In this document: in pieces, positions 47,410 through 61,295 of the stretch
Position numbering within the stretch: position 1 is the stretch's first letter
How the letters are laid out: each line of letters starts with the position of its first letter
Sequence record: MN013077.1
From: Klebsiella phage vB_KaeM_KaOmega
Length of the DNA: 64,000 nt
Direction: 5' to 3' (one strand)
The notes under the pieces: model-generated
Seen by the model: the letters and a program-made list of their open reading frames with translations, nothing else
Told to the model about the DNA's origin: nothing
Databases searched by the model: none
Program-made: the position numbers and the translations under genes

Positions 47410-48350
47410 TTTGTGAGCCAAGGACGGCTCAGATTTCAGATCGGTTTTCGATTTGATATTTGTACCTGATATTTGTGTAGATATTTGAAATCAGATTTCA
47501 ACTCGAAATTCAATTTGAGATTTTATTTGGTATGGCCCGGCGGGCCGGAACCCAGATCTGATTTCTTTTTCAGATTTACTGACCAATGTACCAAACTGAC
47601 TGACCTTTGGTCAATACCTATTGCATCATAAATGTTACATTAAGGGGCTTATGACTCGTTAATGACACATAAACGTTACATAGTGAGAGTTATCCTCTGT
47701 CAGAAAATTTGAGGGTCTCGATCGACTTTTCATTTTGCCGATCGTATTTTCTGTACAGCCCGGCTGTCCGGGGTCTCGATAGAAAAATCGGGGTCTCGAT
47801 CGGTTTTTCGATTTCCAGATCGTATTCTCGATACAGGTACAGGTCTCACGCCGGGGTCTCGATCGAAAGTTCAAAACCCAAAACGTATTCTCAAAATCTA
47901 TACAGAGGTGAAAATCGAAATGCAAATCGTTATCATTATCACGTCGCCCGGGTCGGAATGAGAATCGTTCTCATTTGCAAATGTAACTGATAATCATTCG
48001 CATTTAGGTTGTTGAATGAGAATCATTCTCATCTCCAGAATAGCGGGCAGGTCCGGTGATTGTCTCCGGGTCAATTCTCCCCGCTATGTGTATAATATAA
48101 CCCAGGCCCGGCCCGGTGGCAAGCGTCTTTACAGTTCTTTACAAAACTATTTTAGGCGAACTACCGGCGATCCACCTTCCGACCTGGCCCCGGTGCCCGG
48201 TACGTTAGCCCCGCCTTTTCGCCGTGGGGTGGCGTCTCCTCTCCTGTATGTGTACATTATGCACCAGGCCAGCCGGGCCGTCAATACCAAAATCAAAATA
48301 AATTTTTCTTGACCCACCAGGCCAGCCGGGCCACAATGCAGGCACACCAA
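47410..48350. repeat. non-coding repeat/regulatory region
   Basis: AT-rich iterons: GATATTTG x3 and CAGATTTC x4 (47440-47570). Four GGGTCTCGATCG(A) units each followed by CGTATTYTC..TACAG (47712-47900). Two AATGAGAA-N3-TTCTCATT palindromes (47957-47975, 48015-48032). CCAGGCCMGCCGGGCC x3. Confidence 0.6.
48308..48336 (+). promoter_or_regulatory. sigma70 promoter (TTGACC-17-CACAAT)
   Basis: First promoter of the early array; GC-rich spacer. Confidence 0.5.
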
Positions 48351-48367
48351 CAAAAGGAGATCGACCC

Positions 48368-48700
48368 ATGCAACAGACGAAATATTTTATTGAAGGAACA
48401 GCCGCCGCCCACGCCGGGCAGATCCGCGCCTGCCGCTACAATAAAGAAGAGAACCGCCGGGAATGGTTCGCCGGGTTCGATAGTGTGGATCGTGGCTATG
48501 CCGTGTTTAAGATCCTCCCTGGTCCCGGCGCTGTTAAGCTGGCTGACCTGGACCCCGTTTATATTGGTGGCGTTAAACAATGCCAAGATCGCGCCGTTAC
48601 CCTGCAACAGGCAGACCGCGCCGGGCGCTATGTCATTTATGATATGGCAACGGGCAAGCCGTACCAGGAAAGCACAAAATTAAATTACAAAAATATTTAA
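48368..48700 (+). CDS. early small protein
   Basis: 110 aa; AAAAGGAG RBS. Confidence 0.5.
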   Translation: MQQTKYFIEGTAAAHAGQIRACRYNKEENRREWFAGFDSVDRGYAVFKILPGPGAVKLADLDPVYIGGVKQCQDRAVTLQQADRAGRYVIYDMATGKPYQESTKLNYKNI

Positions 48701-48708
48701 AATAATGC

Positions 48709-48737
48709 TTGACGGGGCCGACGATAGGCCCCATAAT
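48709..48737 (+). promoter_or_regulatory. strong sigma70 promoter with spacer hairpin (TTGACG-GGGCC-N7-GGCCC-CATAAT)
   Basis: Consensus -35 and -10 with a 17-nt spacer and AT-rich UP element. Confidence 0.7.
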
Positions 48738-48789
48738 TAACCACATAGCGACGCACACCGCGCCGCACTAACAAAGAGAGACCGTCATC

Positions 48790-49227
48790 ATGTTACATTC
48801 AATCAATAAAGAGCAAAAACTGTACGTCCTGAAGTGTGGCAACGGCTTTACCTGCTATGGGTTCGAAGTGCTGGACACAAACGCCCGCAAGGTTAAACAG
48901 TGGTTAGAATCTGAAGGTGCAACAGTCGAGGATCTCCCATATCGCAAGGGCACAAAGAAGCATTATAAAGCCTGTCAAGATATGATCGCCGCTGGTTGTG
49001 CTTATCATGCCAGAACGGGCAAACGCTGCCTTGCTGGACTCACCAAACAATTAAAGGGCCTGGAGGGTCGCCGGGTAGAGGTTGTCACCATGTACGGCGA
49101 AAAACGCCGCTTTATTGTGGGCCGTTCTACTGGCTGGATGCCTGCCCACTTAGAGATCGCCCGCGTCAACAGTAGCGGCGGCATGAGTGCAGAGCAGGAA
49201 TATAAATCTGTAACTATCGTAAAATAA
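48790..49227 (+). CDS. early protein (145 aa)
   Basis: Conserved leader CATAGCGACGCACACCGCGCCGCAC..GAGAGACCGT. Confidence 0.5.
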   Translation: MLHSINKEQKLYVLKCGNGFTCYGFEVLDTNARKVKQWLESEGATVEDLPYRKGTKKHYKACQDMIAAGCAYHARTGKRCLAGLTKQLKGLEGRRVEVVTMYGEKRRFIVGRSTGWMPAHLEIARVNSSGGMSAEQEYKSVTIVK

Positions 49228-49230
49228 ACG

Positions 49231-49259
49231 TTGACACCGGGGCCACCTAGCCCCATAAT
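49231..49259 (+). promoter_or_regulatory. sigma70 promoter with GGGGCC/GGCCCC spacer hairpin
   Basis: TTGACA-17-CATAAT. Confidence 0.7.
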
Positions 49260-49309
49260 ACAAACAAGCCCGGCAAATGGTGCCCGGCAAAATCAGAGAG
49301 TAAAAGAAA

Positions 49310-49531
49310 ATGGCTAAAGTAACCTATAAAAAATCACGTGGCGTTTCCTCTGTTAACCTGGCGGCGGTTGTAACCCTGCCCGCATACCGTACCCGTGACG
49401 AGGCGCGCGCCGTTGCCAGTAAGATCCGCGCCGCTGGCGTGACCCCGACAACGCCAACCAAAACGGCGGACGGCTGGCGAGTTACCGCAAAGCATAACGG
49501 CGGCACACTTTCCCGCAACACTCACCGCTAA
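49310..49531 (+). CDS. early small basic protein
   Basis: 73-aa ORF. Confidence 0.45.
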   Translation: MAKVTYKKSRGVSSVNLAAVVTLPAYRTRDEARAVASKIRAAGVTPTTPTKTADGWRVTAKHNGGTLSRNTHR

Positions 49532-49540
49532 CCAATTGCA

Positions 49541-49562
49541 GGCCCCCGGCGGGGGCCTTTCG
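49541..49562 (+). terminator. hairpin with weak T-tract (possible terminator or processing site)
   Basis: GGCCCCCG-GCGGGGGCC followed by TTTCGTGT. Confidence 0.35.
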
Positions 49563-49577
49563 TGTGGAGTCAGTAAC

Positions 49578-49922
49578 ATGACCAAACAGATCTACCATGT
49601 ACCGATCACGCCGCTTTTCCGTTGTCATATCTTTTATGACTGTAATGATCTTGCGGGGCAATGGATCGGCGATACCGATCAACAATATGATTTCCCGGAA
49701 TGGGACGAACTAAACCGCCGTGTAAGCAACGCCGCACACAATGCCGATCCTGATAGCCTGGCGGACGTGGAACACTTCCCCGGCGGGGCCGCTTGTTTTC
49801 CTTATATTGAGATCACCGCGCCAACGTGGGCGCTATGTAAAGCGATGGGCGACGCCGTGATCCGTTGCATCCTGGACAATGGCGGGATCGTCGAACCAAA
49901 AGACAACGGAATAAATATTTAA
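49578..49922 (+). CDS. early protein
   Basis: ATG at 49578. Confidence 0.4.
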   Translation: MTKQIYHVPITPLFRCHIFYDCNDLAGQWIGDTDQQYDFPEWDELNRRVSNAAHNADPDSLADVEHFPGGAACFPYIEITAPTWALCKAMGDAVIRCILDNGGIVEPKDNGINI

Positions 49923-49941
49923 ATTATTTTCGTTTTAGGGG

Positions 49942-49970
49942 TTGACGCCCGGCGGCGTTACCCTCATAAT
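49942..49970 (+). promoter_or_regulatory. sigma70 promoter (TTGACG-17-CATAAT)
   Basis: Consensus hexamers. Confidence 0.6.
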
Positions 49971-50022
49971 GTATCACATAGGGCGACGGAATAACCCGCC
50001 GCCAAAACCAAAAGGTAACAGT

Positions 50023-50262
50023 ATGCAAACCGTAATGATTAGCCACCCGGATCACGCTTCAGACTTCTACGCCCCGATTTACGCGCCGCTTGAATGGCAA
50101 CGCGCCGGACTGCAAAAAACCGCCACGGGCTACGGCACAAAGATCCCGACGTCCTACATGTTGGACTATCAAGGCAAGCGCCGCCGGATCTACGTTGACC
50201 AGTACAGCAACAGCGGCCACACTTACATAATGATCAAAGGCGAAAAAATTACGGTCTGCTAA
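50023..50262 (+). CDS. early small protein
   Basis: ATG at 50023; leader CACATAGGGCGACGG... Confidence 0.45.
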   Translation: MQTVMISHPDHASDFYAPIYAPLEWQRAGLQKTATGYGTKIPTSYMLDYQGKRRRIYVDQYSNSGHTYIMIKGEKITVC

Positions 50263-50271
50263 AAATAATTG

Positions 50272-50301
50272 TTGACCAGGGGCCGGGTTAGGCCCCATAA
50301 T
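50272..50301 (+). promoter_or_regulatory. sigma70 promoter with spacer hairpin
   Basis: TTGACC-18-CATAAT. Spacer GGGGCC-gggtta-GGCCCC. Confidence 0.7.
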
Positions 50302-50333
50302 ACCAGACATACCAAACAAACGAGGCTTTAAAA

Positions 50334-50564
50334 ATGAATCTGACTACTATCGGCGCTAACCAAACTATGATCACCCTGGCAAATGGCGCACAGGTTTTCT
50401 TTTCCTACAATACCCCGGTTGCGGCATACCTGCCCGGCGAGGGCTACTTGGTGACCGCCACAAAGCACAGCGCCACCACCTCAAAGCATGTTAACGCTTG
50501 GGCTGGCAAAGGTTGCGAGACCCGCCCACAGGAATTTTTTGATAATCTGATTAAATCCGCTTGA
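50334..50564 (+). CDS. early small protein
   Basis: 76-aa ORF. Confidence 0.45.
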   Translation: MNLTTIGANQTMITLANGAQVFFSYNTPVAAYLPGEGYLVTATKHSATTSKHVNAWAGKGCETRPQEFFDNLIKSA

Positions 50565-50590
50565 CGTTGGTTTATGCTGGGGTATATAAT
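50561..50590 (+). promoter_or_regulatory. sigma70 promoter (TTGACG-18-TATAAT)
   Basis: Consensus hexamers, no hairpin. Confidence 0.6.
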
Positions 50591-50642
50591 CCCCGGCATA
50601 GGCAAGCGAAAGCAAACAACCAAACCGAAAGGATAGTAAACG

Positions 50643-51023
50643 ATGAACATTATCAACACTGTAAACGCTAACGAAATCAAAGAAATTTCCGTAACTGGTA
50701 AACGTTGGTTCCAACGTAGCGCCGGGAACACTTACCACAGTGTAAGCCTGGCGGCGCTGGTATCCGTAGAAGTGGCGGACCGTTTAGGCGCTAACCAATA
50801 CGGAAACAAGTCCGGCGACGTGTGGATCGACCTGGCTTATGTTGGTTTCGCTTATGGGTATGAGCGCGGATTTGAACAAACCGCATTAAGTGCAATGATC
50901 GAGGCGGTGAAGGATTCCCCGGCGGCGTGGCGTAAAATGGTTTACGCTTGCCAGGCGGCGGCGGATCTGGGGGTTGTTTACACTGATAACGTTTACGACG
51001 TAAGCCGCAAAAAAGATTTATAA
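50643..51023 (+). CDS. early protein
   Basis: 126-aa ORF. Confidence 0.5.
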   Translation: MNIINTVNANEIKEISVTGKRWFQRSAGNTYHSVSLAALVSVEVADRLGANQYGNKSGDVWIDLAYVGFAYGYERGFEQTALSAMIEAVKDSPAAWRKMVYACQAAADLGVVYTDNVYDVSRKKDL

Positions 51024-51029
51024 TTGTGG

Positions 51030-51059
51030 TTGACACGGGGCCGGGTTAGGCCCCATAAT
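51030..51059 (+). promoter_or_regulatory. sigma70 promoter with spacer hairpin
   Basis: TTGACA-18-CATAAT. Confidence 0.7.
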
Positions 51060-51091
51060 ACCCGCACACCAACAGAAAAGAGATTCACACC

Positions 51092-51301
51092 ATGATCAAC
51101 GAACAGCAAGTAAACGACGTTAAACATGAGGCTTACCAGGTGGCGATCCGTAGCGGTTCCCGCGCCGCCTTTAATCTGGTTGTTGAGTTGTACCCAGAGC
51201 AGGCGCAAAATATCTTGATGCAGGTATCCGTTTTACTGGAGGCGACAAAGCACACCAAATTAAGCGCCGGGATCGACCGCCTCGCAAATAGTTTAAAATA
51301 G
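51092..51301 (+). CDS. early small protein
   Basis: 69-aa ORF. Confidence 0.45.
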   Translation: MINEQQVNDVKHEAYQVAIRSGSRAAFNLVVELYPEQAQNILMQVSVLLEATKHTKLSAGIDRLANSLK

Positions 51302-51304
51302 TTG

Positions 51305-51333
51305 TTGACATCGGGGCCACCCGGCCCCATAAT
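51305..51333 (+). promoter_or_regulatory. sigma70 promoter with spacer hairpin
   Basis: TTGACA-17-CATAAT. Confidence 0.7.
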
Positions 51334-51383
51334 CTGATACATAGCGACGCACAACGCGCCGCACAAAATAGAGAGACCGTAAA

Positions 51384-51749
51384 ATGACTACTTCCACCAA
51401 AAACACCGCCGCTACTGCCGCCGTTCGCGCTTACGTTGTATCTGTTATCGACTTTGAAGGCACCGACGCCGAAAAGCTGAAATTTTTCTTTGATACCCTG
51501 CAATCTGAATACGGGCACGAGGTTAGCCGCTTGGGTCCACAACGCGCCATCACGGAATATCTTCGCGGCCTGCCGTCGTCAATCAATCATGCTTTTATGA
51601 ATCATGAGATCCTTGATCTTTTGTCTGAATGGGGTTACATTCATTTCCACACCACAGCAGCCCAGGAAGAATGGGAGTTAGATCAGTATTGGACACGTTT
51701 GGCGGGTTCTCTGATTATTCAGGCACGTAAGCACGGGGTGATTGAATGA
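51384..51749 (+). CDS. early protein
   Basis: 121-aa ORF. Confidence 0.5.
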   Translation: MTTSTKNTAATAAVRAYVVSVIDFEGTDAEKLKFFFDTLQSEYGHEVSRLGPQRAITEYLRGLPSSINHAFMNHEILDLLSEWGYIHFHTTAAQEEWELDQYWTRLAGSLIIQARKHGVIE

Positions 51750-52060
51750 TTACAGTTCTAACCTTGATCGGGTTAGCGGCGGCGGCGCTGTACTGCGTCG
51801 CCACTTACAAGGCGTCAGTTTGGCGGAAGGGTCAAAAAATGTACGGCTATTTTGAATATGAGTACAAAGGGGAGAAGGGATCAAGCCGGGACTATGGCGC
51901 GATGTTAGAGATCGATATGGTTGGCGCTATGAATTATCGCCAGGAGTTAGGCGCGGCGATCACTTATGAAGTTTATGATCCCTCAGAAGAGAAGATCGGG
52001 GAGATAATTGATCAACGTTACTATATGGAACAGCAACAAAACAAACGCCGGAGAAAATGA
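51746..52060 (+). CDS. early membrane-anchored protein
   Basis: 104 aa with an N-terminal TM helix. Confidence 0.45.
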   Translation: MITVLTLIGLAAAALYCVATYKASVWRKGQKMYGYFEYEYKGEKGSSRDYGAMLEIDMVGAMNYRQELGAAITYEVYDPSEEKIGEIIDQRYYMEQQQNKRRRK

Positions 52061-52062
52061 GA

Positions 52063-52197
52063 ATGATTCACACTAATATTAACCGCGATAAACAACCGCG
52101 CCGCGCCCGTCTCTCATATGCTGAAGCAGGCGAGCGCCTGCAACGTGAGAAGGCCAACAAACAACAGCGCCGTAAAACGCGCTATAACTGGGAGTAA
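52063..52197 (+). CDS. tiny basic protein (44 aa)
   Basis: Found by hand; GGAG RBS. Confidence 0.25.
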   Translation: MIHTNINRDKQPRRARLSYAEAGERLQREKANKQQRRKTRYNWE

Positions 52198-52243
52198 CCG
52201 CCCCCGGCATGGAAACACCAGGCCAAACCGTTTAAACCGCACA

Positions 52244-52270
52244 GGGGGCCGCTTAGGCCCCTTATTTTTG
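52244..52270 (+). terminator. rho-independent terminator
   Basis: GGGGCC-gctta-GGCCCC followed by TTATTTTT. Confidence 0.6.
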
Positions 52271-52286
52271 ATCTACGGGGTACACA

Positions 52287-52514
52287 ATGCAAAACCTTTA
52301 CAGCATGACCGAATTTATCCGATTGTTAGCAGGTCGCCCGATGGGGTTTACCTGCCTTTACCTGGTAACCGACGGCAAAGGCTATCGTATAACGTCCAAA
52401 TCATTAGCCGCCATTGCAGCGCGGGAAGGGGTGAAGATCTCCACCTCCCAGGCGCTGATTGTGGACCCGGCGACCGTGGCGACGATTGAGGCGATCCGGG
52501 TTACCGTAAAATAA
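52287..52514 (+). CDS. early small protein
   Basis: 75-aa ORF; no dedicated promoter seen. Confidence 0.4.
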   Translation: MQNLYSMTEFIRLLAGRPMGFTCLYLVTDGKGYRITSKSLAAIAAREGVKISTSQALIVDPATVATIEAIRVTVK

Positions 52515-52538
52515 TTTAAAATATTTTCATCCTGGGGC

Positions 52539-52567
52539 TTGACGTCCGGCCCCGGTTCCCCCATAAT
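52539..52567 (+). promoter_or_regulatory. sigma70 promoter (TTGACG-17-CATAAT)
   Basis: Spacer CCGGCCCCGG. Confidence 0.65.
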
Positions 52568-52617
52568 CTAACCCATAGCGACGCACACCGCGCCGCACAA
52601 ACAAAAGAGAGACCGTT

Positions 52618-53034
52618 ATGACTTCCCCAATTTTCCGTATCAAATCAGGCTTATCGGCTTACGCATTATCTTGCGGTTACTTCCAGCGTATCGAGTCAGA
52701 GATCACCGGGGAAGATATCCGGGTTGACCTTTGGCATGAGTCGGGCCACTTCCACGCCCGCGCCCACAATTTTACAACCTCCACTCGGATCGAATGGGTA
52801 ACAGAAAGTAACCTTGACGACGCCCGCACACAATGGGCCGCGCTTGTCAAACAAATTTTTGGCGACGTGATCCGCACCATTAAAAAGGATAAGCGCTACA
52901 CCGTAAACCGTGAGTTTGCCGGAGAGTCATCACCCGCTTATGTGACCCGCTTTTGTGGCGAATGGGTATCAAACAGCGATACCGCGCCCGGCGCATGGGT
53001 AAAAGCCGCCGAACACAACGCCGAAAGAATTTAA
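52618..53034 (+). CDS. early protein
   Basis: 138-aa ORF. Confidence 0.5.
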   Translation: MTSPIFRIKSGLSAYALSCGYFQRIESEITGEDIRVDLWHESGHFHARAHNFTTSTRIEWVTESNLDDARTQWAALVKQIFGDVIRTIKKDKRYTVNREFAGESSPAYVTRFCGEWVSNSDTAPGAWVKAAEHNAERI

Positions 53035-53043
53035 AAATAATTG

Positions 53044-53072
53044 TTGACGGGGCCGACGATAGGCCCCATAAT
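53044..53072 (+). promoter_or_regulatory. sigma70 promoter with spacer hairpin (identical to the one at 48709)
   Basis: TTGACGGGGCCGACGATAGGCCCCATAAT. Confidence 0.7.
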
Positions 53073-53103
53073 ACCCACAGATAAGCAAACCGGAGTTAGA
53101 CCA

Positions 53104-53256
53104 ATGAAACATTATCTTGTAAACATTCCTGGCGTGGCTGGCCCGCTTAAAGTTTTCGGCTATGATGAACAGGACGCAAGAAAGCGCCTACGTGATCGGG
53201 AAGGTTTCGGATCACGCCTCCCACGGGGCACAAAATTTTATTTGCAAAACGCTTGA
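53104..53256 (+). CDS. tiny protein (50 aa)
   Basis: ATG at 53104. Confidence 0.35.
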   Translation: MKHYLVNIPGVAGPLKVFGYDEQDARKRLRDREGFGSRLPRGTKFYLQNA

Positions 53257-53282
53257 CGTGTGGTTATGCCGTCCCTTACAAT
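53253..53282 (+). promoter_or_regulatory. sigma70 promoter (TTGACG-17/18-TACAAT)
   Basis: Leader ACAAACGA...AACGAGG. Confidence 0.55.
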
Positions 53283-53334
53283 GACGGCATAGACAAACGA
53301 AAGCAAACCAGACAACCAAACGAGGGTTACAATT

Positions 53335-53586
53335 ATGTTTGAAGTATTCGCCGGAATGTGTTTTTATGCTGCCGCCGCTTTAAAACAGTGTGATGATTAC
53401 ACCGTTGAAGCATACGATGATCAATTAACGTGTGAGATCGTCGCCAATGGCTACCGTCAGGACCCGCGCTGGATTAACCCGGCTTGCATACCGGGGCCGG
53501 AAGTGGAAGCAATGCCGGAGGGTGATCCGTGGCTTGAACCTGTACCGCCTGCCGATCATTTCAATGTTAACCCGGCACAAAAATAA
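53335..53586 (+). CDS. early small protein
   Basis: 83-aa ORF. Confidence 0.45.
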   Translation: MFEVFAGMCFYAAAALKQCDDYTVEAYDDQLTCEIVANGYRQDPRWINPACIPGPEVEAMPEGDPWLEPVPPADHFNVNPAQK

Positions 53587-53589
53587 TTG

Positions 53590-55283: not shown

Positions 55284-55290
55284 AAAGTAG

Positions 55291-55319
55291 TTGACGGCGG
55301 GGCCGATAGGCCCCATAAT
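55291..55319 (+). promoter_or_regulatory. sigma70 promoter with spacer hairpin
   Basis: TTGACG-17-CATAAT. Confidence 0.7.
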
Positions 55320-55353
55320 ACCACCACACCAAACGAATAAAGAGAATCACAAA

Positions 55354-55608
55354 ATGTTAAAATTCATCAAATCACTTTTCACCCGTACCGCCCCGGCTTG
55401 CAAGTTGCCACCCCTGGAGGCGAAAGGTGTGATCGCTCGCAAAGTCTCAGAATTGTTTATCATTTCATTGGTTCACAATGGCGGCGACTGTTACGAAATC
55501 ATCGAAATGGGCCGCTACACTAAAACAGGATCAAGCCGTGTCCGCTACGGTGAACACCGCGCCCGGAATCATTTTGATTCTGTATGCTGTATGGTCGGTG
55601 CAAAATAA
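55354..55608 (+). CDS. early small protein
   Basis: ATG at 55354. Confidence 0.45.
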   Translation: MLKFIKSLFTRTAPACKLPPLEAKGVIARKVSELFIISLVHNGGDCYEIIEMGRYTKTGSSRVRYGEHRARNHFDSVCCMVGAK

Positions 55609-55611
55609 ACC

Positions 55612-55640
55612 TTGACGGGGCCAACGTTAGGCCCCATAAT
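55612..55640 (+). promoter_or_regulatory. sigma70 promoter with spacer hairpin
   Basis: TTGACG-GGGCC-N7-GGCCC-CATAAT. Confidence 0.7.
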
Positions 55641-55690
55641 GTATCACACAGGGCGACACAACGCCGCCCACAAACAAAAGGCAGACCGTT

Positions 55691-56053
55691 ATGATCTTCA
55701 ATATCACCGAACTGAAAAAGAAAATGTCAGAGATGCTCTTCAATATTAGTGAATACGGGCACCCGTCCTACACTATCTTTGAGGCTGTTTTGTCAAAGTG
55801 CCAAAAGTTCGAATTAGTGATCGAGGTTGTACCGGGTCGCCTCCTGAAGTTGGGATCTGGCAAGTGGGGTTATAAACTTGATGCCTACGTCCAACAGTTA
55901 GCCGCCGGGGCCGATCCTATGGCAGATGATTATTGCGATGATGCCGACACTATCGCAAGCGTGGACGGTGAATATTGCCGGACAAAGGCGGCGCTTTTTG
56001 AAGCGATCAGCGAAGTTATCAACGAAGCAAAAGAAAACGTAATAACACGATAA
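55691..56053 (+). CDS. early protein
   Basis: 120-aa ORF. Confidence 0.5.
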   Translation: MIFNITELKKKMSEMLFNISEYGHPSYTIFEAVLSKCQKFELVIEVVPGRLLKLGSGKWGYKLDAYVQQLAAGADPMADDYCDDADTIASVDGEYCRTKAALFEAISEVINEAKENVITR

Positions 56054-56067
56054 GCTAAAAAGAATTG

Positions 56068-56097
56068 TTGACGCCGGGAAGCGTTACGGGTTATACT
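56068..56097 (+). promoter_or_regulatory. sigma70 promoter (TTGACG-17/18-TATACT)
   Basis: Spacer CCGGG..CGGG. Confidence 0.5.
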
Positions 56098-56145
56098 CTT
56101 TTCATCGGGTCACAACAGACCACAACAAACAAAGAGAGAAACAAA

Positions 56146-56223
56146 ATGAGCGTAATCTTCCTAGTATCTGTTTTCGTAGCTATTGCATCTTCTACCGCAA
56201 TTTGTATCAAACTGGGATACTAA
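56146..56223 (+). CDS. tiny hydrophobic peptide (25 aa, MSVIFLVSVFVAIASSTAICIKLGY)
   Basis: AAAGAGAGA RBS. Directly downstream of the promoter. Confidence 0.3.
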   Translation: MSVIFLVSVFVAIASSTAICIKLGY

Positions 56224-56227
56224 TTAA

Positions 56228-56620
56228 ATGACTACTTTCAACGTTTTACACTTAAACGCTTTTATCGCGGGTTACATTGAGGCAATGTTTTTTGCAGAGT
56301 CCGCCACCGATAGCGACGGCGAAGAGATCGAAAGTTTAGCCGGGTATGAGTTAAGCGCTGAAGCCCTGGACGCTGCCCGCATGGATTGTGCCCGCTTTAT
56401 GGACGTTGCGCCTCTGTTACTCAAAGGGGCAATGCTGGCAGGGGTTGACTATGACCACACCCAGGCGGGCCGGGATCTATGGTTTAGCCGTCAAGGGCAC
56501 GGCGTAGGATTCTGGGATCGCGGACTTGGGGCGATCGGTGATAAACTCCACGACGTGGCGAAGACTTTCGGATCAAAAAATCTGTTTATCAATGATGCCG
56601 GATTTATTGAGGTAGAATAA
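56228..56620 (+). CDS. early protein
   Basis: 130-aa ORF. Confidence 0.45.
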   Translation: MTTFNVLHLNAFIAGYIEAMFFAESATDSDGEEIESLAGYELSAEALDAARMDCARFMDVAPLLLKGAMLAGVDYDHTQAGRDLWFSRQGHGVGFWDRGLGAIGDKLHDVAKTFGSKNLFINDAGFIEVE

Positions 56621-57081
56621 TGAACCTTACAGATCTGAAGTATTACGACGAATTGACCCCAGCGGCGCAAGCTGAAGCCCGGCGCAACGTTGCCGCTAGT
56701 GTGCAGACTCACCACGGGCGGGAAATCGGAAAGGCGTTTTTTAAATTCCAGCGGGACCCAAACAAGGCGATCAATGACCCGCTGCACATCCGCCGGATCA
56801 TCAATGGCGGCGAAGCGTGGCGCAAGATCCGCCAGGAGGGCGACGCCTATCTAATCCGCTTTATCCGGTCCAATAAAGTGATCTTTACTGATTGCGGGGC
56901 GTATGTAGCGTATGTGGACGCCTTCACAATGTTTATTGATGGGTTGGAATACATACCCACAGCCGAACAGCAAAAGACTCTTAGAACGCCTTACATCGAC
57001 GTTAACGGGCGGGGGCCTGCGTTTCATGATTGGCTATACCGTATGCACCACAAAATAAAGTTTTTCATGATCCGGGGTTGA
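56620..57081 (+). CDS. early protein
   Basis: 153-aa ORF. Confidence 0.5.
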   Translation: MNLTDLKYYDELTPAAQAEARRNVAASVQTHHGREIGKAFFKFQRDPNKAINDPLHIRRIINGGEAWRKIRQEGDAYLIRFIRSNKVIFTDCGAYVAYVDAFTMFIDGLEYIPTAEQQKTLRTPYIDVNGRGPAFHDWLYRMHHKIKFFMIRG

Positions 57082-57106
57082 CACCCGGCGGAATAGGGCC
57101 GATAAT
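57078..57106 (+). promoter_or_regulatory. sigma70 promoter (TTGACA-17-GATAAT)
   Basis: Leader hairpin GGGCGGGGAATGGTCCCCGG, as at 54820. Confidence 0.6.
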
Positions 57107-57159
57107 GTCTCTCATAGGGCGGGGAATGGTCCCCGGCCCAATGAACTGGAGTCAGTACA

Positions 57160-57411
57160 ATGGAAATCAAACACGTAATTTCTGCAAACGTCGCCGTTTT
57201 AGGTTCTGTAAGTGAAACCCGTGTGAGTCTGGCGAAATGGTGCGCCGCTCAAACTTTCGGGAGTTACGGCGAAAAGGTAACAGAGGTTAAGCGCTTGCTT
57301 TCCTTTGGCAACGTGGGCCGCAAGTTGTTAACAGAGGATATCGCCCGCCGGGTTGAGATCCATTATTCACTTGCTCAAATCATCGTAAAAGAGATCGAAA
57401 GCGCAATTTAA
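57160..57411 (+). CDS. early small protein
   Basis: 83-aa ORF. Confidence 0.45.
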   Translation: MEIKHVISANVAVLGSVSETRVSLAKWCAAQTFGSYGEKVTEVKRLLSFGNVGRKLLTEDIARRVEIHYSLAQIIVKEIESAI

Positions 57412-57449
57412 CCCGGCCCGGCCCCGAAAGGGGCCAAAAGGAAAATAAA

Positions 57450-57629
57450 ATGACTTATTTCAGAAACTTAGAAAACGGGCATTATTACACCATATCCGCC
57501 GGGCGGGTTCGTTGGTGGCTGGATCATTCTGCCGTGTGGGTCCGTAGTGAACATCTAAAGCCGTGTGACCTTGCCCACTATCCGTATATTGGAACCACCA
57601 CCGGACCAGGGGCCGAAAATGGGCGCTAA
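57450..57629 (+). CDS. tiny protein (59 aa)
   Basis: Preceded by a GGCCCC-gaaa-GGGGCC hairpin with no promoter hexamers. Confidence 0.3.
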   Translation: MTYFRNLENGHYYTISAGRVRWWLDHSAVWVRSEHLKPCDLAHYPYIGTTTGPGAENGR

Positions 57630-57843
57630 TACCCGCAACCGCTACGGCATAACGCGCCGTTTCGGGGTCTGCTATATGCTGGCAGATGATCCACAATACA
57701 GGGCATTGCTGGAGGCTTACCAGGTCACCAAACTGGACGCCCAAAAGGGCCGGGCCGAACATGCCGCCCACGTAGCGAACATCAAAGCGTTACACGAATT
57801 TTTAGCCGTCGCTGAAAAGCGCCACGACATCCGCCACCGTTGA
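57619..57843 (+). CDS. small basic protein
   Basis: ATG at 57619 overlaps the upstream stop. Confidence 0.35.
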   Translation: MGANTRNRYGITRRFGVCYMLADDPQYRALLEAYQVTKLDAQKGRAEHAAHVANIKALHEFLAVAEKRHDIRHR

Positions 57844-57854
57844 GAGTGCAAACC

Positions 57855-58049
57855 ATGATCACAGAATCCGAGATCCGCCAAACGTTAGCCGCCTTGCGTT
57901 ACCTCCACGCCTTGCGCCGGGCAAGTGATCCGACTTATGCCGGGTCATGCCTGGCTAACGATGCCGAAAACGGGATCGCCACACTGAAAGAATTAAACGA
58001 CCGCATGAGCGACAGCGACCGATCCGACTTCATAGGGGGCGAAATATGA
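57855..58049 (+). CDS. small protein
   Basis: ATG at 57855. Confidence 0.4.
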   Translation: MITESEIRQTLAALRYLHALRRASDPTYAGSCLANDAENGIATLKELNDRMSDSDRSDFIGGEI

Positions 58050-58246
58050 TCGACTTATCCGGCGTGAAGCCTGGCGATCTGGTCTGGGCCTTTGACTATC
58101 CGACCGATCCACCGTATGACGTTTGCAACGCTTGCAAACTGGAGTATTTGAACACCGGGAAAAATGAGTACCAGTTACGCCGCCCGGATAACGGCGTGAT
58201 CGTTTACTTTCGCTACATCGCACCAATTGAAGGGGCCAAACCATGA
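58046..58246 (+). CDS. small protein
   Basis: 66-aa ORF. Confidence 0.4.
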   Translation: MIDLSGVKPGDLVWAFDYPTDPPYDVCNACKLEYLNTGKNEYQLRRPDNGVIVYFRYIAPIEGAKP

Positions 58247-58557
58247 TCGCCATTACGCCAACCGTTTTAGATTGGTATCGCCAACAGATCGCGCCGCCGC
58301 TGGCTATCTTCAAACAGGCAGAAAGCAAACAGCGCCGGATCTCCATTCATGAGATCATCACCCTTAACGCCGGGGCGGTCCCGTTCAATCCTGGGGCGGG
58401 TCGCAACATGGGCAACACGTTAGCGCTTTTGAGTTTACGCCGGAAACGGTCCGCCCTTACCTTGGATTCACTCCGCATGATGGGAGATCCGCACCGGGTA
58501 ACAGGTCGCCGGATCGCCAGGGCCTGGGAACGGGCAAACGGTCGAAAGGTTGTATAA
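58243..58557 (+). CDS. hypothetical basic protein
   Basis: 104-aa ORF. Confidence 0.45.
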   Translation: MIAITPTVLDWYRQQIAPPLAIFKQAESKQRRISIHEIITLNAGAVPFNPGAGRNMGNTLALLSLRRKRSALTLDSLRMMGDPHRVTGRRIARAWERANGRKVV

Positions 58558-58975
58558 AATAACAGTGTTTACAGGGGTTGAATTGTTCGCCCCTTTTTGT
58601 TATCCTTTTTTCATGCGATGGCACCTGATGCAGGGGGAGACAAACACCGGACCTGCCCGCTATTCAGGAAGGCGGACCGGACCTGGGTCTCTCCGGATAG
58701 ATGAGAATGGTTATCATTCCCAATCAAATCAAATACATACTTTCAAACCGTTGTCAAATTTATTTCGTACTCCTGTATAAATGTACATGGTTCTAAAACG
58801 TCCTGAATCGCGTTTTAAGCCGTTTTCCCCTTACCCGGTATCCTACATCATAAAAATATAGATCTCTCGAAATCGGACTTTCGCACTTTTTGCCCTTGCA
58901 AACGTAAAAATTTTATGTTAGACCTGAAGGGCTGAAAGCCGGGTTTACGTTGACAAAACTTTACAATTCTCCCTA

Positions 58976-59003
58976 TTGCATCGATCCGCCATTGTGCTAT
59001 TAT
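58976..59003 (+). promoter_or_regulatory. candidate sigma70 promoter (TTGCAT-16-TATTAT)
   Basis: Upstream of gene 59057; leader is of the GGGCGGC family. Confidence 0.4.
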
Positions 59004-59056
59004 TTATCACGTAGGGCGGCAATGACGCGACGGCCCGCAGAGAGGAGACAGTAAAA

Positions 59057-59428
59057 ATGAACCTGACCAACTTCAACCGCTACTACATCCGCGACGAACA
59101 GGCAAACGCTTTTGGGTACGATCGTTCGTTCGAAATGCAACAGCACGTAGGCGGCGCAAAGTTACACGTTGAAACTGTTACCTTTGAAAACTATTTTATG
59201 GCGACCTTTGACAATGGTTTACAGATCTCCATTGAGTACAAAGGCGGCGTGATGACTCTCGCCACTGAGGATAAATTCCGCAAAAAAGATCTTTTGAATC
59301 ATCCAGGTTTTGCCAGCAACAAAGAATTATTGATTAAAATTTATATCCGCTGGGTAGTGGGCCGCATCGCAACAGAAGAGCAGATCGCCGCCCTGGTGGA
59401 TCTGGCTCTGAATCTGGATTTAAATTAA
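59057..59428 (+). CDS. early protein
   Basis: 123 aa; GAGAGGAG RBS. Confidence 0.5.
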   Translation: MNLTNFNRYYIRDEQANAFGYDRSFEMQQHVGGAKLHVETVTFENYFMATFDNGLQISIEYKGGVMTLATEDKFRKKDLLNHPGFASNKELLIKIYIRWVVGRIATEEQIAALVDLALNLDLN

Positions 59429-59431
59429 TAG

Positions 59432-59460
59432 TTGACAAGGGGCCGGAAAGGCCCCATAAT
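59432..59460 (+). promoter_or_regulatory. sigma70 promoter with spacer hairpin
   Basis: TTGACA-17-CATAAT; identical core to the promoter at 54024. Confidence 0.7.
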
Positions 59461-59505
59461 ACCCACTCAAGCAACAAACCACTAAGAACACTGGAGACCG
59501 TAAAA

Positions 59506-59820
59506 ATGACCAAATCTAAATTTTTCGAAATGCTGGATCGCTACCTGTCAAGCCATAACGAGTGGGCCAAACTTGGCAACGGTTACGACTCATACAAGGC
59601 CGAACAGTTAAAACCTTATGTTTTCCATGAGGACCCGGCGAACCTGGAGAAATGGAAAGCTAAAGATCCGTCCTATCCTTGGACCGCTCACGCTTCAGGT
59701 TTTACCCTGGCTGATTGTTGGCATGTTGAGGTAATGCAACATAAAACCGCTGAAGCGGCAGAAAAGCAAAACAAAATTTTCACCCGCTGGATCGCAGACT
59801 ATCAAAAGGCCCGCGCTTAA
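59506..59820 (+). CDS. early protein
   Basis: 104-aa ORF. Confidence 0.5.
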   Translation: MTKSKFFEMLDRYLSSHNEWAKLGNGYDSYKAEQLKPYVFHEDPANLEKWKAKDPSYPWTAHASGFTLADCWHVEVMQHKTAEAAEKQNKIFTRWIADYQKARA

Positions 59821-60065
59821 TGTCCCGGCTTTTTAAAATCAATCTTCCATTGTGGGCCGCTTTAGCGGTCCTCATTGCCTTTTTTGGCGATACGGTCAAC
59901 AATTGGATTTTGTCCGCTGTACTTGGACCGGATCAACTGGTCACAACATTTTTAAACGCTTTCGGCGCTACACTGGCAACGGCCCGCCTTGCCTATCGTG
60001 GCAAATCAATAAACCGTTATGATCTGGCGCTATCACTGCCCGCCCTGGTTACCTGCCTAAACTGA
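59820..60065 (+). CDS. membrane protein
   Basis: 81 aa with two TM helices. Confidence 0.45.
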   Translation: MSRLFKINLPLWAALAVLIAFFGDTVNNWILSAVLGPDQLVTTFLNAFGATLATARLAYRGKSINRYDLALSLPALVTCLN

Positions 60066-60067
60066 AG

Positions 60068-60093
60068 AGGCCCGCCACCCCGGCGGGCTTTTT
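60068..60093 (+). terminator. rho-independent terminator
   Basis: GCCCGCC-acccc-GGCGGGC followed by TTTTTGTT. Confidence 0.75.
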
Positions 60094-60122
60094 GTTGCAT
60101 CCAGATCCGTGACCTGTTATAA
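60094..60122 (+). promoter_or_regulatory. sigma70 promoter (TTGCAT-17-TATAAT)
   Basis: Near-perfect consensus. Confidence 0.65.
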
Positions 60123-60169
60123 TACTTACTCACCCGGCAACCGGGCCAAACAACTGGAGACCGTAAAAC

Positions 60170-60370
60170 ATGACAACCGCCAACCGCCTGATCGATGTTC
60201 TGAATGATGCAAAGGCAAACCGTTTAGCCGTGGCAATCAAAGAAGAGGCAAACGGGCTGATCCTGGCAAGTGTTACCGATGGCTGTTACACTGAATCATT
60301 CCATGCTGATACACTGGAGTATCTCGCCCACAGATTAGAAATGATCGTTGACGATTGGCGGCTATTGTGA
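60170..60370 (+). CDS. last small protein of the rightward array
   Basis: 66-aa ORF. Confidence 0.45.
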   Translation: MTTANRLIDVLNDAKANRLAVAIKEEANGLILASVTDGCYTESFHADTLEYLAHRLEMIVDDWRLL

Positions 60371-60385
60371 TCCGACCAAACCAAA

Positions 60386-60414
60386 CAGGCCCGGCATAGT
60401 CCGGGCTTTTTAGT
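60386..60414 (+). terminator. rho-independent terminator
   Basis: GGCCCGG-cata-GTCCGGGC followed by TTTTTAGTG. Confidence 0.65.
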
Positions 60415-60666
60415 GCCTGCAATCCGGCCCGGTATTGGTCCGACTCCCCCAGCCTATAAGCCCTTATCATTTAACATTGTGGAAATCAACATCTAATTTT
60501 ATTCATAAAAACATGCATAATTGAATACAGGAGGCGCTAACCCACTAGCCAGGGTTGAGAGTAGCGGGCCGCATAGGGCCTTACAGCGCGTTTTAGCCCC
60601 TATTGACTTCTATCTGCAAACGTGTATCAGGCCACAACTGACTAAATCACCTTTTCTTTACATAAC

Positions 60667-60697
60667 TTGACACTATTTATTCATTTATCTGCATAAT
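60667..60697 (+). promoter_or_regulatory. candidate promoter (TTGACA-17-TGCATAAT) in the non-coding region
   Basis: No downstream ORF. Points toward the inverted-repeat-flanked element. Confidence 0.3.
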
Positions 60698-60762
60698 GCG
60701 AGAATGATTATCATTTACAATCAATAACTTAACTTTTTATTGACTTCTGACAAAACACGGTT

Positions 60763-60911
60763 TTACGTTCCCACGGATCAAGGGAGGGCGCGCCGGAGGC
60801 GCGACCAATAGAAAACAGGTAACGAACCCTCCCCCGTTGCTAGCTCGCAACGGTTTAGGCTTACGTTCCCACGGTCAAGGGATGACCGCTATCACCTGTT
60901 TTCTATTGGTC
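60763..60911. other. structured element: two 23-nt direct repeats plus an 18-bp perfect inverted repeat (GACCAATAGAAAACAGGT / ACCTGTTTTCTATTGGTC) enclosing about 73 nt with internal palindromes
   Basis: Direct repeats at 60763-60785 and 60861-60883. Inverted-repeat arms at 60803-60820 and 60894-60911. Internal GGGAGGG..CCCTCCC and CGTTGC..GCAACG pairings. Confidence 0.5.
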
Positions 60912-61149
60912 ATTTGTGATTGAAAATCACGTAAAGTCAAGTTTTATTTTACAAATGAGAGTTATTCTTATCTGCATAAAGATTGGTTTTATCTGCATAA
61001 ATACGTAAACAGGCGGACCCGGTACGGGCCGGAGGGCCTGAGAGGAGAGGGCCTTTATTGCTCACAAAACAGCCGAAAGCGTAGCTTTTGCCTGGCAAAA
61101 TTCACTCTTCGTGTCAAGCGAAAAATAATTTTTTTTCTTTTTTCGTAAA

Positions 61150-61295
61150 CGATAATGATTCTCATCCGAGAACCATTCTCAAAGGGCGAATGCGAGTCAT
61201 TCTCATTGGCATTCCACAACGTGAGTGAGACTCATTCTCATCTAGGCCACGGCTGGCGGGCCTCTCCACGTGTTGGGAATGATTATCATTATCCC
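61150..61295. repeat. cluster of TTCTCAT(T) half-sites and an AATGATTATCATT palindrome
   Basis: Four TTCTCAT half-sites between 61159 and 61241. Palindrome at 61278-61290. The same AATGATTATCATT also at 60705-60717. Confidence 0.5.

Follow-up and report, generated by a model that had tools for sequence, protein, structure and literature searches.

Layout of the early block and its borders

The window analysed here, a 64,000-nucleotide stretch of the genome of Klebsiella phage vB_KaeM_KaOmega (MN013077.1), contains a rightward array in which more than 20 near-consensus sigma-70 promoters precede small ORFs, and whose early timing is suggested by the promoter type. These promoters share the form AAAATAAT-TTGAC-GC hairpin spacer-CATAAT. 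Clusters of palindromes that match the operator of the host iron regulator Fur lie at both borders of the array, referred to here as clusters A (left) and B (right). The features of the locus, from left to right, are as follows (bit scores refer to the host-derived matrix described below).

47712..47865, + strand: four copies of the direct repeat GGGGTCTCGATCG, left of cluster A (short-repeat family D12)
47919..48033, no strand: cluster A, Fur-box array by sequence, with sites at 47919-37, 47957-75, 47980-98/47986-48004 and 48015-33
48034..48067, no strand: 34-nt element adjoining Fur site 48015, left arm of an inverted repeat spaced 10.6 kb apart
48094..48122, - strand: PL1, leftward sigma-70 promoter, TTGCCA-17-TATATT, hexamers conserved in nine phages
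48100..48250, - strand: conserved non-coding block between PL2 and PL1, predicted leftward transcript
48256..48284, - strand: PL2, leftward sigma-70 promoter, TTGACG-17-CATAAT, with the architecture of the array promoters
48309..48337, + strand: PR, first rightward promoter, TTGACC-17-CACAAT, preceding the first early gene at 48368
48689..60353, + strand: predicted early-gene array, promoters and small ORFs (families D1-D13)
52056..52074, no strand: internal Fur-like site, weak (10.5 bits), where one gene stops and the next starts
58636..58724, no strand: internal module, a strong Fur site and the 34-nt element in inverted orientation, within a non-coding gap of 450 bp
60667..60721, + strand: promoter-like site, TTGACA (60667-72) and TGCATAAT (60690-97), with a Fur box over -10/+1
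60803..60911, no strand: perfect 18-bp inverted repeat (I8; 60803-20 and 60894-911), a structured non-coding element
60954..61000, no strand: Fur-like site 60954-72 (10.9 bits), then two copies of TTATCTGCATAA (60968, 60989)
61148..61296, no strand: main array of cluster B, sites 61148-66, 61189-207, 61224-42 and 61272-90, the last overlapped by 61278-96

The initial annotation had reported palindromes AATGAGAATCGTTCTCATT at 47957-47975 and AATGAGAATCATTCTCAT at 48015, and both were confirmed, although its list of sites proved incomplete: cluster A holds four to five and cluster B six (60697, 60954, 61148, 61189, 61224 and 61272). Sites in cluster A are spaced 38, 29 and 29 bp from centre to centre, score 20.5, 20.5, 12.5/15.6 and 16.1 bits, and lie in DNA of 61% AT content; the third position is occupied by a pair overlapping with a 6-nt shift, an arrangement that recurs throughout the locus (47980/47986, 58700/58706, 60697/60703 and 61272/61278). 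The palindromes had been placed just upstream of the first early promoter, but two conserved leftward promoters intervene before the first rightward one. PL2 is kept in all nine aligned phages with differing spacers (TTGACA-17-TATACT in Schickermooser, TTGACG-18-TATACT in phiTE), and PL1 retains its minus-strand -35 and -10 hexamers around a variable GC-rich spacer in nine phages. The block between them, which is probably read leftward from PL2, is near-invariant in four Certreviruses and recognisable in four more genera, with weak covariation and no Rfam match; the ORF at 48016-48312 is non-coding, since indels there are not multiples of three. The transcript predicted from PL1 would cross the 34-nt element and enter cluster A, and Fur site 48015 would fall at approximately +54 to +72. 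No other part of region A is as well conserved across the subfamily as this element; its two arms (repeat I1), 94% complementary, are both kept in F1M1E and CR3, while phiTE has the left arm only. One extra copy of the GGGGTCTCGATCG repeat occurs at 36380.

Within the array, no Fur-like site overlaps any of the main early promoters, of which there are more than 20. The internal module combines the inverted 34-nt copy (58636-58669) with a Fur site at 58700-58718 and an overlapping one at 58706 (16.8 and 12.7 bits; the homolog scores 22.1 bits in F1M1E and 16.8 in CR3), and the weak site at 52056, conserved in F1M1E, phiTE and CR3, may owe its sequence partly to coding constraints. The earlier description of palindromes bracketing the array thus holds for the clusters on both sides, but overlooks these internal sites, one strong (58700) and one weak (52056).

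At the right border, the promoter-like site at 60667, whose quality is uncertain because its spacer is 19 nt, shows no variation across four Certreviruses, and its Fur box (60697-60715, overlapping 60703-60721; 14.6 and 13.4 bits) almost none. Judged by its sequence, this layout is the classic arrangement of a Fur-repressed promoter. Only 60697-60721 overlaps promoter-like sequence; cluster A lies downstream of PL1 and PL2, and cluster B between terminator-like hairpins. Downstream of the 60667 promoter, the perfect inverted repeat encloses one of two ACGTTCCCACGG(A)TCAAGGGA repeats, and in phiTE it carries a compensatory change (CAGGT/ACCTG to GGGT/ACCC). The TTATCTGCATAA motif is present in three exact copies, the third at 60685. 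The main array of cluster B, with spacings of 41, 35 and 48 bp and scores of 16.3 (61148), 16.6 (61189), 7.7 (61224) and 12.8 bits (61272), sits between facing terminator-like hairpins where the rightward early array meets a leftward gene block. Three of the four TTCTCAT half-sites previously noted downstream of the array are exact (61159, 61200 and 61235) and the fourth reads TTCTCAA, while AATGATTATCATT does occur twice, as exact copies at 60703 and 61278 and nowhere else.

Match of the palindromes to Fur boxes

Approximately 12 sites of the type AATGAGAAT-N-ATTCTCATT occur at 47919-61296, compared with 0.15 expected by chance, and none is found in the other 50 kb of the window. A search with the 19-mer on both strands, allowing up to 3 mismatches, returned 19 matches representing 11 distinct sites, all within 47919-61293 (the chance expectation derives from shuffles). 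The 12 sites fit the 9-1-9 register of the Fur consensus used here, AATGATAATNATTATCATT, at 15-17 of 18 positions, and conform to the definition of a Fur box as the 19-bp inverted repeat GATAATGATAATCATTATC or the equivalent 7-1-7 form TGATAATNATTATCA.

This correspondence was examined in both directions. A matrix built from the phage sites alone and applied to 150 kb of E. coli K-12 recovered Fur operators or published predicted sites as 11 of its 13 best matches, namely fecI, fhuA, fecA, cirA, six in ent/fep and an oppA site that is also predicted by a published Fur model (PMC2189734). Conversely, an unsupervised matrix derived from eight host Fur-regulated promoter regions (consensus AATGATAATAATTATCATT) gave 15 matches of at least 9 bits in the window, 14 of them at the reported sites and none outside 47919-61296. 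Phage sites score 10.5-20.5 bits with this matrix and the host operators themselves 9.4-20.6 bits; two sites, 61224 (7.7 bits) and 52056 (10.5 bits), are marginal. In addition, at ten bacterial loci chosen for looking recognisable, the exact phage 19-mer sits 2-245 nt upstream of iron-homeostasis genes in diverse bacteria, including FTR1, FeoA, FeoB, a TonB-dependent receptor, Peripla_BP_2, an Fe-type SBP, an ABC gene and fur. G/T swaps between phages fall at an arm position at which Fur is tolerant. By sequence, then, the phage palindromes are Fur boxes, fitting the Fur operator no less closely than genuine host operators, and they very probably bind dimers of host Fe2+-Fur. Our literature search found no paper linking these phage palindromes to Fur.

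The dimeric DNA-binding regulator proposed in the initial annotation is consistent with these findings in that Fur is a dimer, but the regulator implied is the host's. A helix-turn-helix protein had been anticipated in the phage, yet none of 20 early-block ORFs contains a Pfam DNA-binding domain, and no Fur homolog was found among 50,697 records for these phage groups. The motif also recurs in unrelated phages with which this one has no protein in common. The binder is thus probably not encoded by the phage, and host Fur is the probable candidate. Partition sites had also been suggested; that role gains no support, as a parS-like reading is unnecessary given that the sites match Fur, and no ParB-type domain was detected among the 20 early ORFs scanned. 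The anatomy of the locus would allow the sites to serve as an insulator or boundary.

Conservation and related arrays in other phages

The genome-wide motif search proposed earlier bore out the confinement of the motif to the early block: in the complete 149.8-kb genome of the relative F1M1E, 17 sites score at least 10 bits and all but one of them lie at 80.4-93.2 kb, within a 12.8-kb early-gene block, and 14 sites reach at least 12 bits compared with 0.8 expected. Cluster A spacing is identical in F1M1E and CR3 (37/29/29 in phiTE), as is that of the cluster B main array, of which phiTE keeps three of four sites above threshold. At the position homologous to site 48015, strong sites (21-23 bits) are found in five further genera, Mydovirus, Seunavirus, Henunavirus, Vequintavirus and Phapecoctavirus.

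Enterobacterial Fur boxes (fhuA, fecI, fepA-fes, fepB-entC and cirA) share with the phage sites the same 19-bp inverted repeat, score range and G/T tolerance in the arms, and footprinted host Fur clusters display the same 6-nt-shifted overlapping sites (PMC2189734). However, where host operators consist of one or two overlapping sites over a promoter, the phage arrays comprise 4-6 separate sites, 29-48 bp apart, mostly off promoters and in long non-coding DNA of a virulent phage.

Similar palindrome arrays are present in the injection stop signal of T5 and in the unrelated jumbo phage RaK2. The T5 array spans 9552-9715 (best site 23.1 bits), and the T5-like Salmonella phage Kenya-K18 has one of the same kind. 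Repeat Region 3 of the T5 signal contains DRC repeats and the palindromes palE, palH, palG, palI and palJ (Wang 2005, Davison); in the searchable T5 literature these palindromes are not identified as Fur boxes. Like the arrays described here, Repeat Region 3 places AATGAGAAT-type palindromes beside a short direct-repeat family in conserved non-coding DNA, in a convergent zone at the far end of the first-expressed genes. The direct repeats nevertheless differ (GGGGTCTCGATCG in this phage, TGTCGGATTYGCACA in the T5 group), and the proteins of the two regions are unrelated: no ORF is shared between the first 12.5 kb of T5 or the K18 locus and either the window or the F1M1E genome (E<=1e-3), in which relatives of the A1/A2-type proteins for two-step transfer were likewise not found at that threshold. 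T5 further has DnaA boxes in pairs, a position in a terminal repeat, a major nick and proven two-step DNA transfer, of which none was found in this phage; TTWTNCACA is absent from cluster A and region B, and its sole copy in region A overlaps the PL1 -10. With arrays present in this phage, its relatives, T5 and RaK2, recruitment of the host's iron regulator may be a strategy of large virulent phages.

Possible roles of the arrays

The sites are confined to the early block, and their positions are fixed relative to conserved promoters and hairpins over large evolutionary distances. We consider it reasonably probable that arrays of sites for host Fur border, and partly interrupt, the early block, where they may act in cis as a roadblock or operator, with titration of Fur as a secondary effect. 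The early block would be read by host RNA polymerase, with the Fur sites in conserved non-coding DNA at its borders. In iron-replete cells Fur would occupy the arrays and, once bound, could stop or repress the non-coding boundary transcripts and also halt read-through that enters or leaves the block, so that the iron status of the host would determine how the borders behave. Copies made after replication could additionally soak up a sizeable share of cellular Fur. The specific assignment of a roadblock or insulator function is more tentative, possible rather than probable. A precedent is the DnaA-box roadblock at the asnC terminator, where RNA polymerase is halted by an abundant DNA-binding protein of the host bound downstream of a promoter; the mechanism suggested for Fur at the block borders would be analogous, although the protein differs.

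Several observations run counter to such a role. The promoter nearest to cluster A is 50-170 nt upstream of it, a distance at which roadblock repression is usually weak; intrinsic terminators could perform the boundary function without Fur; and the T5 array is linked to a pause in DNA transfer, with no known transcriptional effect.

Titration might alternatively be the principal function, with replicated genomes presenting hundreds of copies of some 14 strong sites in trans, so that host iron uptake and RyhB are derepressed and iron is supplied to a phage di-iron ribonucleotide reductase. Boxes present in many copies are known to titrate Fur, an effect on which the Fur titration assay relies (PMC2189734), most sites are clear of the main promoters, the density of 4-5 separate strong sites per 200 nt exceeds the maximum of 2 in any host locus examined, and the genes of a relative include those for a glutaredoxin and for both subunits (alpha and beta) of a class Ia RNR. 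We nonetheless find this account unlikely, as a sponge needs neither fixed positions and spacing beside conserved promoters and hairpins nor confinement to the early block, when non-coding gaps elsewhere, the divergent region at 36 kb among them, lack sites. Moreover, T5 has the same arrays yet is described as degrading host DNA within minutes, so that little host transcription would be left to derepress. An improbable reading, too, is that the arrays are a signal for DNA transactions, either a T5-like injection stop, with entry paused or held at a host-protein complex, or a transcription-primed replication origin in which tandem promoters PL2 and PL1 are followed by the AT-richer array and then iteron-like repeats. 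The arrays of T5 and the T5-like Salmonella phage do lie inside the annotated injection stop signal, with the DnaA boxes on one side, the DRD repeats and the major nick on the other, and the estimated shear point close by (Davison preprint), and region A offers a parallel in its Fur array, short direct-repeat family and two tandem promoters reading in, through the AT-rich cluster A and then the GGGGTCTCGATCG repeats. Yet DnaA boxes (TTWTNCACA) are not enriched in the window (7 versus 6 expected), circular permutation has been described for rV5 (PMC3606486), a single genome has arrays at three places, and T5 origins map near the centre of its genome (Davison preprint). Nor is there a sign of a terminal repeat or fixed entry end, since none of the Vequintavirinae matches listed has the region twice.

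Binding by an early protein of the phage itself, with the likeness to Fur boxes due to mimicry or coincidence, appears very unlikely. The T5 pre-early protein A2 is annotated as DNA-binding, and because most early ORFs are without known function, a DNA-binding protein among them could have escaped recognition; but neither direction of comparison tells the motif apart from host operators, its variation follows Fur tolerance, no Fur homolog was found in these phage groups, and the motif recurs in three phage lineages, of which the T5 type shares no detectable pre-early protein with this phage. It is scarcely credible that the palindromes work at the RNA level, forming hairpins that terminate or help to process the boundary transcripts: the sites are in probably transcribed regions and partly self-complementary, but just 5-8 of 9 arm positions pair, and since the match to the Fur consensus (15-17 of 18) exceeds this complementarity, selection has not acted on them as hairpins. 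Where phages differ, the consensus is preserved and the pairing is not, and the stems would be short, AU-rich and without a 3' U tract.

Host Fur operators carried on phage DNA have precedents among temperate phages, where the stx1 promoter carries a Fur box. The sitABCD operon on lambdoid prophages is a further example (PMC6969025). Those are single operators controlling a cargo gene useful to the lysogen, whereas the present arrays belong to the core early region of phages that are strictly virulent, and no iron-related gene follows them.

Palindromes at the borders of the early block and their match to Fur boxes

In sequence searches, the 15 kb around the palindromes matched Certrevirus phages, which are rV5-like myoviruses of the Vequintavirinae with genomes of ~150 kb; identity over this stretch was 90.6% for Enterobacter phage vB_ExiM_F1M1E (F1M1E) and lower for the Cronobacter phages PBES02, CR3 and CR8 and the Pectobacterium phages phiTE and CB7. 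On the plus strand, the interval from 48.7 to 60.35 kb carries more than 20 near-consensus sigma-70 promoters, each located 5' of small ORFs, in which TTGAC and CATAAT are separated by a palindromic GC-rich spacer and preceded by A/T-rich sequence, so that the term "early array" used in the initial annotation is a fair one, with early timing judged from promoter type only. Among 20 ORFs of this block scanned against Pfam, the sole match was a T4 Gp30.7 family member (59057-59428; PF06919, E=1.8e-43). Gene searches of the window recovered no tRNA or tmRNA genes, and no Rfam family reached its gathering score anywhere in it. The block is bordered by two long non-coding regions:

47408-48367: region A, long non-coding region at the left border of the early array
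60371 to ~61900: region B, long non-coding region at the right border of the early array

Genes to the right of region B in related phages lie on the minus strand, and region B is thus a convergence zone.

All palindromic sequences quoted in the initial annotation were found in place, with the exception that only three of the four downstream TTCTCAT copies are exact, the fourth reading TTCTCAA. Allowing up to three mismatches, the 19-mer AATGAGAATNNTTCTCATT occurs at 11 distinct sites in the window (0.15 expected), all of them within 47919-61293. The proposed bracketing of the early array holds for the flanking sites, which form a cluster in each border region (cluster A, 47919-48033; cluster B, 60697-61296, with its main array at 61148-61296), but the motif also occurs inside the array, with a strong match at 58700 and a weak match at 52056.

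The identity of these sites as boxes for the host ferric uptake regulator, Fur, was examined in both directions without circularity, by applying a phage-derived matrix to host DNA and a host-derived matrix to phage DNA. A symmetric matrix built from ten phage sites only was scanned against 150 kb of E. coli K-12 containing the classic Fur regulon loci, and 11 of its 13 top matches were Fur operators or the oppA site: the fecI, fhuA, fecA and cirA promoters, six positions across three ent/fep divergent promoter regions, and one position upstream of oppA, where a published information-theory model also predicts a strong Fur site (PMC2189734). Conversely, an unsupervised Gibbs search of eight host Fur-regulated intergenic regions converged on AATGATAATAATTATCATT, and the host matrix gave 15 matches of at least 9 bits in the window, 14 of which are the reported sites (the fifteenth, of 12 bits, lies at 50022), with none in 1-47900 or 61300-64000. 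Scores of the phage sites (10.5-20.5 bits) span the same range as those of the host operators themselves (9.4-20.6 bits). Furthermore, the exact palindrome AATGAGAATCATTCTCATT is present in more than 120 bacterial contigs, and in ten loci, which were picked as recognisable and hence serve as examples that give no rate, it lies 2-245 nt upstream of genes encoding an FTR1 iron permease, FeoA, FeoB, two TonB-dependent receptors, a Peripla_BP_2 protein, an iron-type solute-binding protein, an ABC ATPase and two Fur-family regulators. By sequence, then, the phage sites are operator-grade Fur boxes, all tests of the match to the Fur operator having given this result, and binding by host Fur is predicted with high confidence.

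Fur boxes are textbook operators; to our knowledge, those on phage DNA are known only as single sites controlling cargo genes of temperate phages. One example is sitABCD on lambdoid prophages (PMC6969025). We found no paper linking Fur boxes to T5-like or rV5-like phages, in a search that left subscription journals mostly uncovered, so that an older report is possible; as far as the searchable literature shows, virulent phages have not been described to carry dense Fur arrays in their core early region.

Conservation and anatomy of the border regions

The initial annotation, which had suggested that the operator-like palindromes serve a dimeric regulator or are partition/insulator-like sites, proposed a genome-wide motif search, and the outcome for the motif was positive. 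In the full F1M1E genome (149.8 kb, assembled from five fetched pieces), 16 of 17 sites scoring at least 10 bits with the Fur matrix fall within the interval homologous to the early block (80.4-93.2 kb), or 8.5% of the genome; the remaining site lies at 139.5 kb in an AT-rich divergent promoter region. At a threshold of 12 bits, 14 sites were observed, compared with 0.8 per genome expected from first-order Markov simulations. Spacing is likewise maintained: the four sites of cluster A are placed at 38/29/29 bp in F1M1E and CR3 and at 37/29/29 bp in phiTE, while the 41/35/48 bp spacing of cluster B is kept in CR3 and F1M1E, with three of the four sites above threshold in phiTE. Swaps between GAGAAT and GATAAT occur among phages at a position where Fur is tolerant. 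In general, regions A and B are better conserved than neighboring genes, with 48013-48250 and most of 60560-61330 nearly invariant, phiTE included. Region A matches 406 phage records, and a Fur site of 21-23 bits, adjoining a conserved 34-nt element, occupies the homologous spot, across two subfamilies, in another five genera (Mydovirus, Seunavirus, Henunavirus, Vequintavirus and Phapecoctavirus) infecting Klebsiella, Salmonella, Erwinia and E. coli.

Within region A, an alignment of nine phages revealed two promoter-like units that are conserved solely as minus-strand reads, with hexamers kept and GC-rich spacers varying between phages:

48284 to 48256, minus strand: PL2, leftward sigma-70 promoter, TTGACG-17-CATAAT
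48122 to 48094, minus strand: PL1, leftward sigma-70 promoter, TTGCCA-17-TATATT

The two promoters flank a non-coding block of ~150 nt (48100-48250), which is almost unchanged in four Certreviruses and can still be recognised in Mydovirus, Seunavirus, Henunavirus and Phapecoctavirus; the Fur site at 48015 would correspond to about +54 to +72 of PL1. Leftward transcripts would pass from this block through the hairpin-forming 34-nt element (48034-48067) into the Fur array. The minus strand of the block may encode an unannotated small RNA; it has no Rfam match, and a defined fold on the promoter-indicated strand was rejected, with compensatory change in only 1 of 30 predicted pairs and weak covariation. 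An ORF at 48016-48312, which starts inside the Fur site at 48015 and is annotated as a CDS in F1M1E, was also rejected, as the nine-phage alignment shows indels whose lengths are not divisible by three, so that the sequence is non-coding; annotations of relatives carry a spurious CDS over the block.

The 34-nt element recurs in inverted orientation at 58636-58669, 10.6 kb away, with 94% complementarity. Each arm adjoins a Fur site, the right one lying beside the internal site at 58700, and both arms are present in F1M1E and CR3, with the left arm only in phiTE. Together with sequence just after the PL1 start, the element could form a long hairpin (ATAGCGGG...CCCGCTAT). Left of cluster A there are four copies of GGGGTCTCGATCG (47712-47865), a further copy of which, at 36380, sits in the divergent strand-switch region at 36.4 kb, and a second repeat family of TCAGATTTCA type (47429-47577).

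The -10/+1 segment of an invariant promoter-like site in region B (TTGACA at 60667 ... TGCATAAT) is covered by a near-invariant Fur box, and the site is directed toward structured non-coding DNA. This element (60740-60915), a candidate small RNA downstream of the Fur-overlapped 60667 promoter, contains ACGTTCCCACGG(A)TCAAGGGA twice as a direct repeat, together with a perfect inverted repeat of 18 bp (60803-20 / 60894-911) that shows a compensatory change in phiTE, and is preceded by a promoter-like TTGACT-18-TACGTT at 60743. The main array (61148-61296) is flanked by terminator-like hairpins facing each other. Three exact copies of TTATCTGCATAA, conserved in relatives, also lie in region B (60685, 60968 and 60989), the last of which reads CATAAATA and resembles a T4-type late promoter core.

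Fur-box arrays in T5-like and other phages

Matches to the core of cluster A, which spans three sites, were also found in T5-like phages. The left terminal repeat carries an array of strong Fur boxes at its inner, non-coding end in T5 (NC_005859; 9552-9715, best site 23.1 bits) and Salmonella phage Kenya-K18 (at least seven sites with a period of ~35 bp, at locus positions 2995-3199 and 3538). Both arrays are located inside the annotated injection stop signal (iss), between DnaA boxes and the DRD repeats with the major nick, and close to the estimated shear point of first-step transfer. Elements of the T5 array have been listed as DRC repeats and palindromes palE to palJ, the function of which was considered impossible to guess, with A1 cleavage sites suggested as a possibility (Davison preprint); that comparative analysis, the most detailed to cover these palindromes, does not mention Fur, and in two 2026 papers the description of the region goes no further than repeats, palindromes and DnaA boxes.

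Like the T5 iss, the region studied here combines a Fur-type array with adjoining direct repeats where the first-expressed genes end. Unlike it, the region has neither the paired DnaA boxes of T5 nor A1/A2-type proteins, nor an established place in a terminal repeat, for which reasons we do not file it as a member of the T5 iss class. A view of the 12-kb early block as a long terminal repeat with arrays at its edges, as in T5 or SPO1, was not supported: rV5 is reported to be circularly permuted (PMC3606486), which counts against a terminal repeat, no Vequintavirinae record among the matches listed contains region A twice, and the end of the PBES02 record inside region B is not on its own evidence of such a repeat.

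Arrays extend to other phages. Of at least 120 viral contigs with one exact site, 29 of the 120 listed hold at least three strong sites within 400 nt, and only seven of these 29 are T5-like or rV5-like. Another of the 29 is the virulent jumbo Klebsiella phage RaK2 (NC_019526), in which a five-site array lies in a 1.5-kb non-coding gap that immediately precedes a series of small ORFs, including one with similarity to rV5 gp180:

2096-2215, 2382-2406, 2614-2638 and 3448-3472 (locus positions within record 223500-228500): RaK2 Fur array and single strong sites

The single strong sites occur 5' of small ORFs in and after the gap, which also contains many CAGTACTG palindromes and shares the short strings TCTTTACAAAA and TGGCGTCTCC with region A. 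In phage muut the array is annotated merely as "repeat_region". Periodic arrays were also seen in four uncultured viral contigs from IMG/VR (L163, L199, L164 and L140; GC 21% to 53%) unrelated to T5-like and rV5-like phages, with 13 strong sites in 6.4 kb of L163 and five double sites at 28-29 bp in L199.

Candidate binders and proposed roles of the arrays

The phage sites fit the Fur consensus at 15-17 of 18 positions, compared with only 5-8 of 9 self-complementary arm pairs, which argues for selection on a protein-binding consensus as opposed to hairpin potential; hairpin selection was thus rejected as an account of the palindromes, and a role as RNA hairpins is disfavored. As for the protein, a phage-encoded binder is possible but has little support. 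No Fur homolog was found in Vequintavirinae, Stephanstirmvirinae or T5-like entries among 50,697 phage records, and a phage-encoded Fur was rejected for these groups; the 20 early-block ORFs contain no Pfam DNA-binding domains, and ORFs from the first 12.5 kb of T5 and from the Kenya-K18 locus have no relative in the window or the whole F1M1E genome. Host Fur, which is highly conserved among enterobacterial hosts, would be the only nameable binder common to these lineages.

The Fur boxes are confined to the early block, conserved in place and held at a fixed relation to conserved promoters. In iron-replete cells, Fe2+-Fur would occupy the arrays and could act in cis as a roadblock or operator, stopping leftward non-coding transcripts at the left border, repressing the 60667 promoter and backing up the convergent terminators at the right border, such that the behavior of the early-block borders would depend on whether the host is iron-rich or iron-poor. 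This cis role is the likeliest of those considered, but we advance it only tentatively. A trans-acting sponge that titrates Fur is feasible and the number of sites would suffice, but it is hard to reconcile with their conserved placement and with the early destruction of host DNA by T5. A role in DNA transactions, as a T5-iss-like element or a transcription-primed origin, is possible; against it, DnaA boxes, present in T5, are not enriched in the window, and no indication of a terminal repeat was seen.

If dense, position-conserved arrays in the core early region do act through Fur, strictly virulent phages would read or exploit the iron sensor of their host, through a feature that several major virulent groups of enterobacterial phages have conserved. 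Known for more than 50 years, the T5 injection stop signal contains long unexplained palindromes, for which the Fur match names a testable candidate host factor. Furthermore, rV5-like and T5-like phages have wide use in therapy and biocontrol, and would be applied in host environments with limiting iron, so that an iron-dependent step in the early programme, if real, would carry practical weight. T5 itself enters via FhuA, which is Fur-repressed. In a broader scenario, which we regard as improbable, T5-like, rV5-like and RaK2-like phages each acquired Fur-operator arrays through which cell iron status gates an early step of infection, with Fur as the host factor of the T5 iss; the rV5-like arrays would then represent an equivalent checkpoint or boundary on the early programme. 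As a separate observation, the phage groups with the highest sensitivity to the DNA intercalator daunorubicin include both Demerecviridae (T5-like) and Vequintavirinae; the drug blocks infection by T5-like phages once first-step transfer has taken place (PMC13250531).
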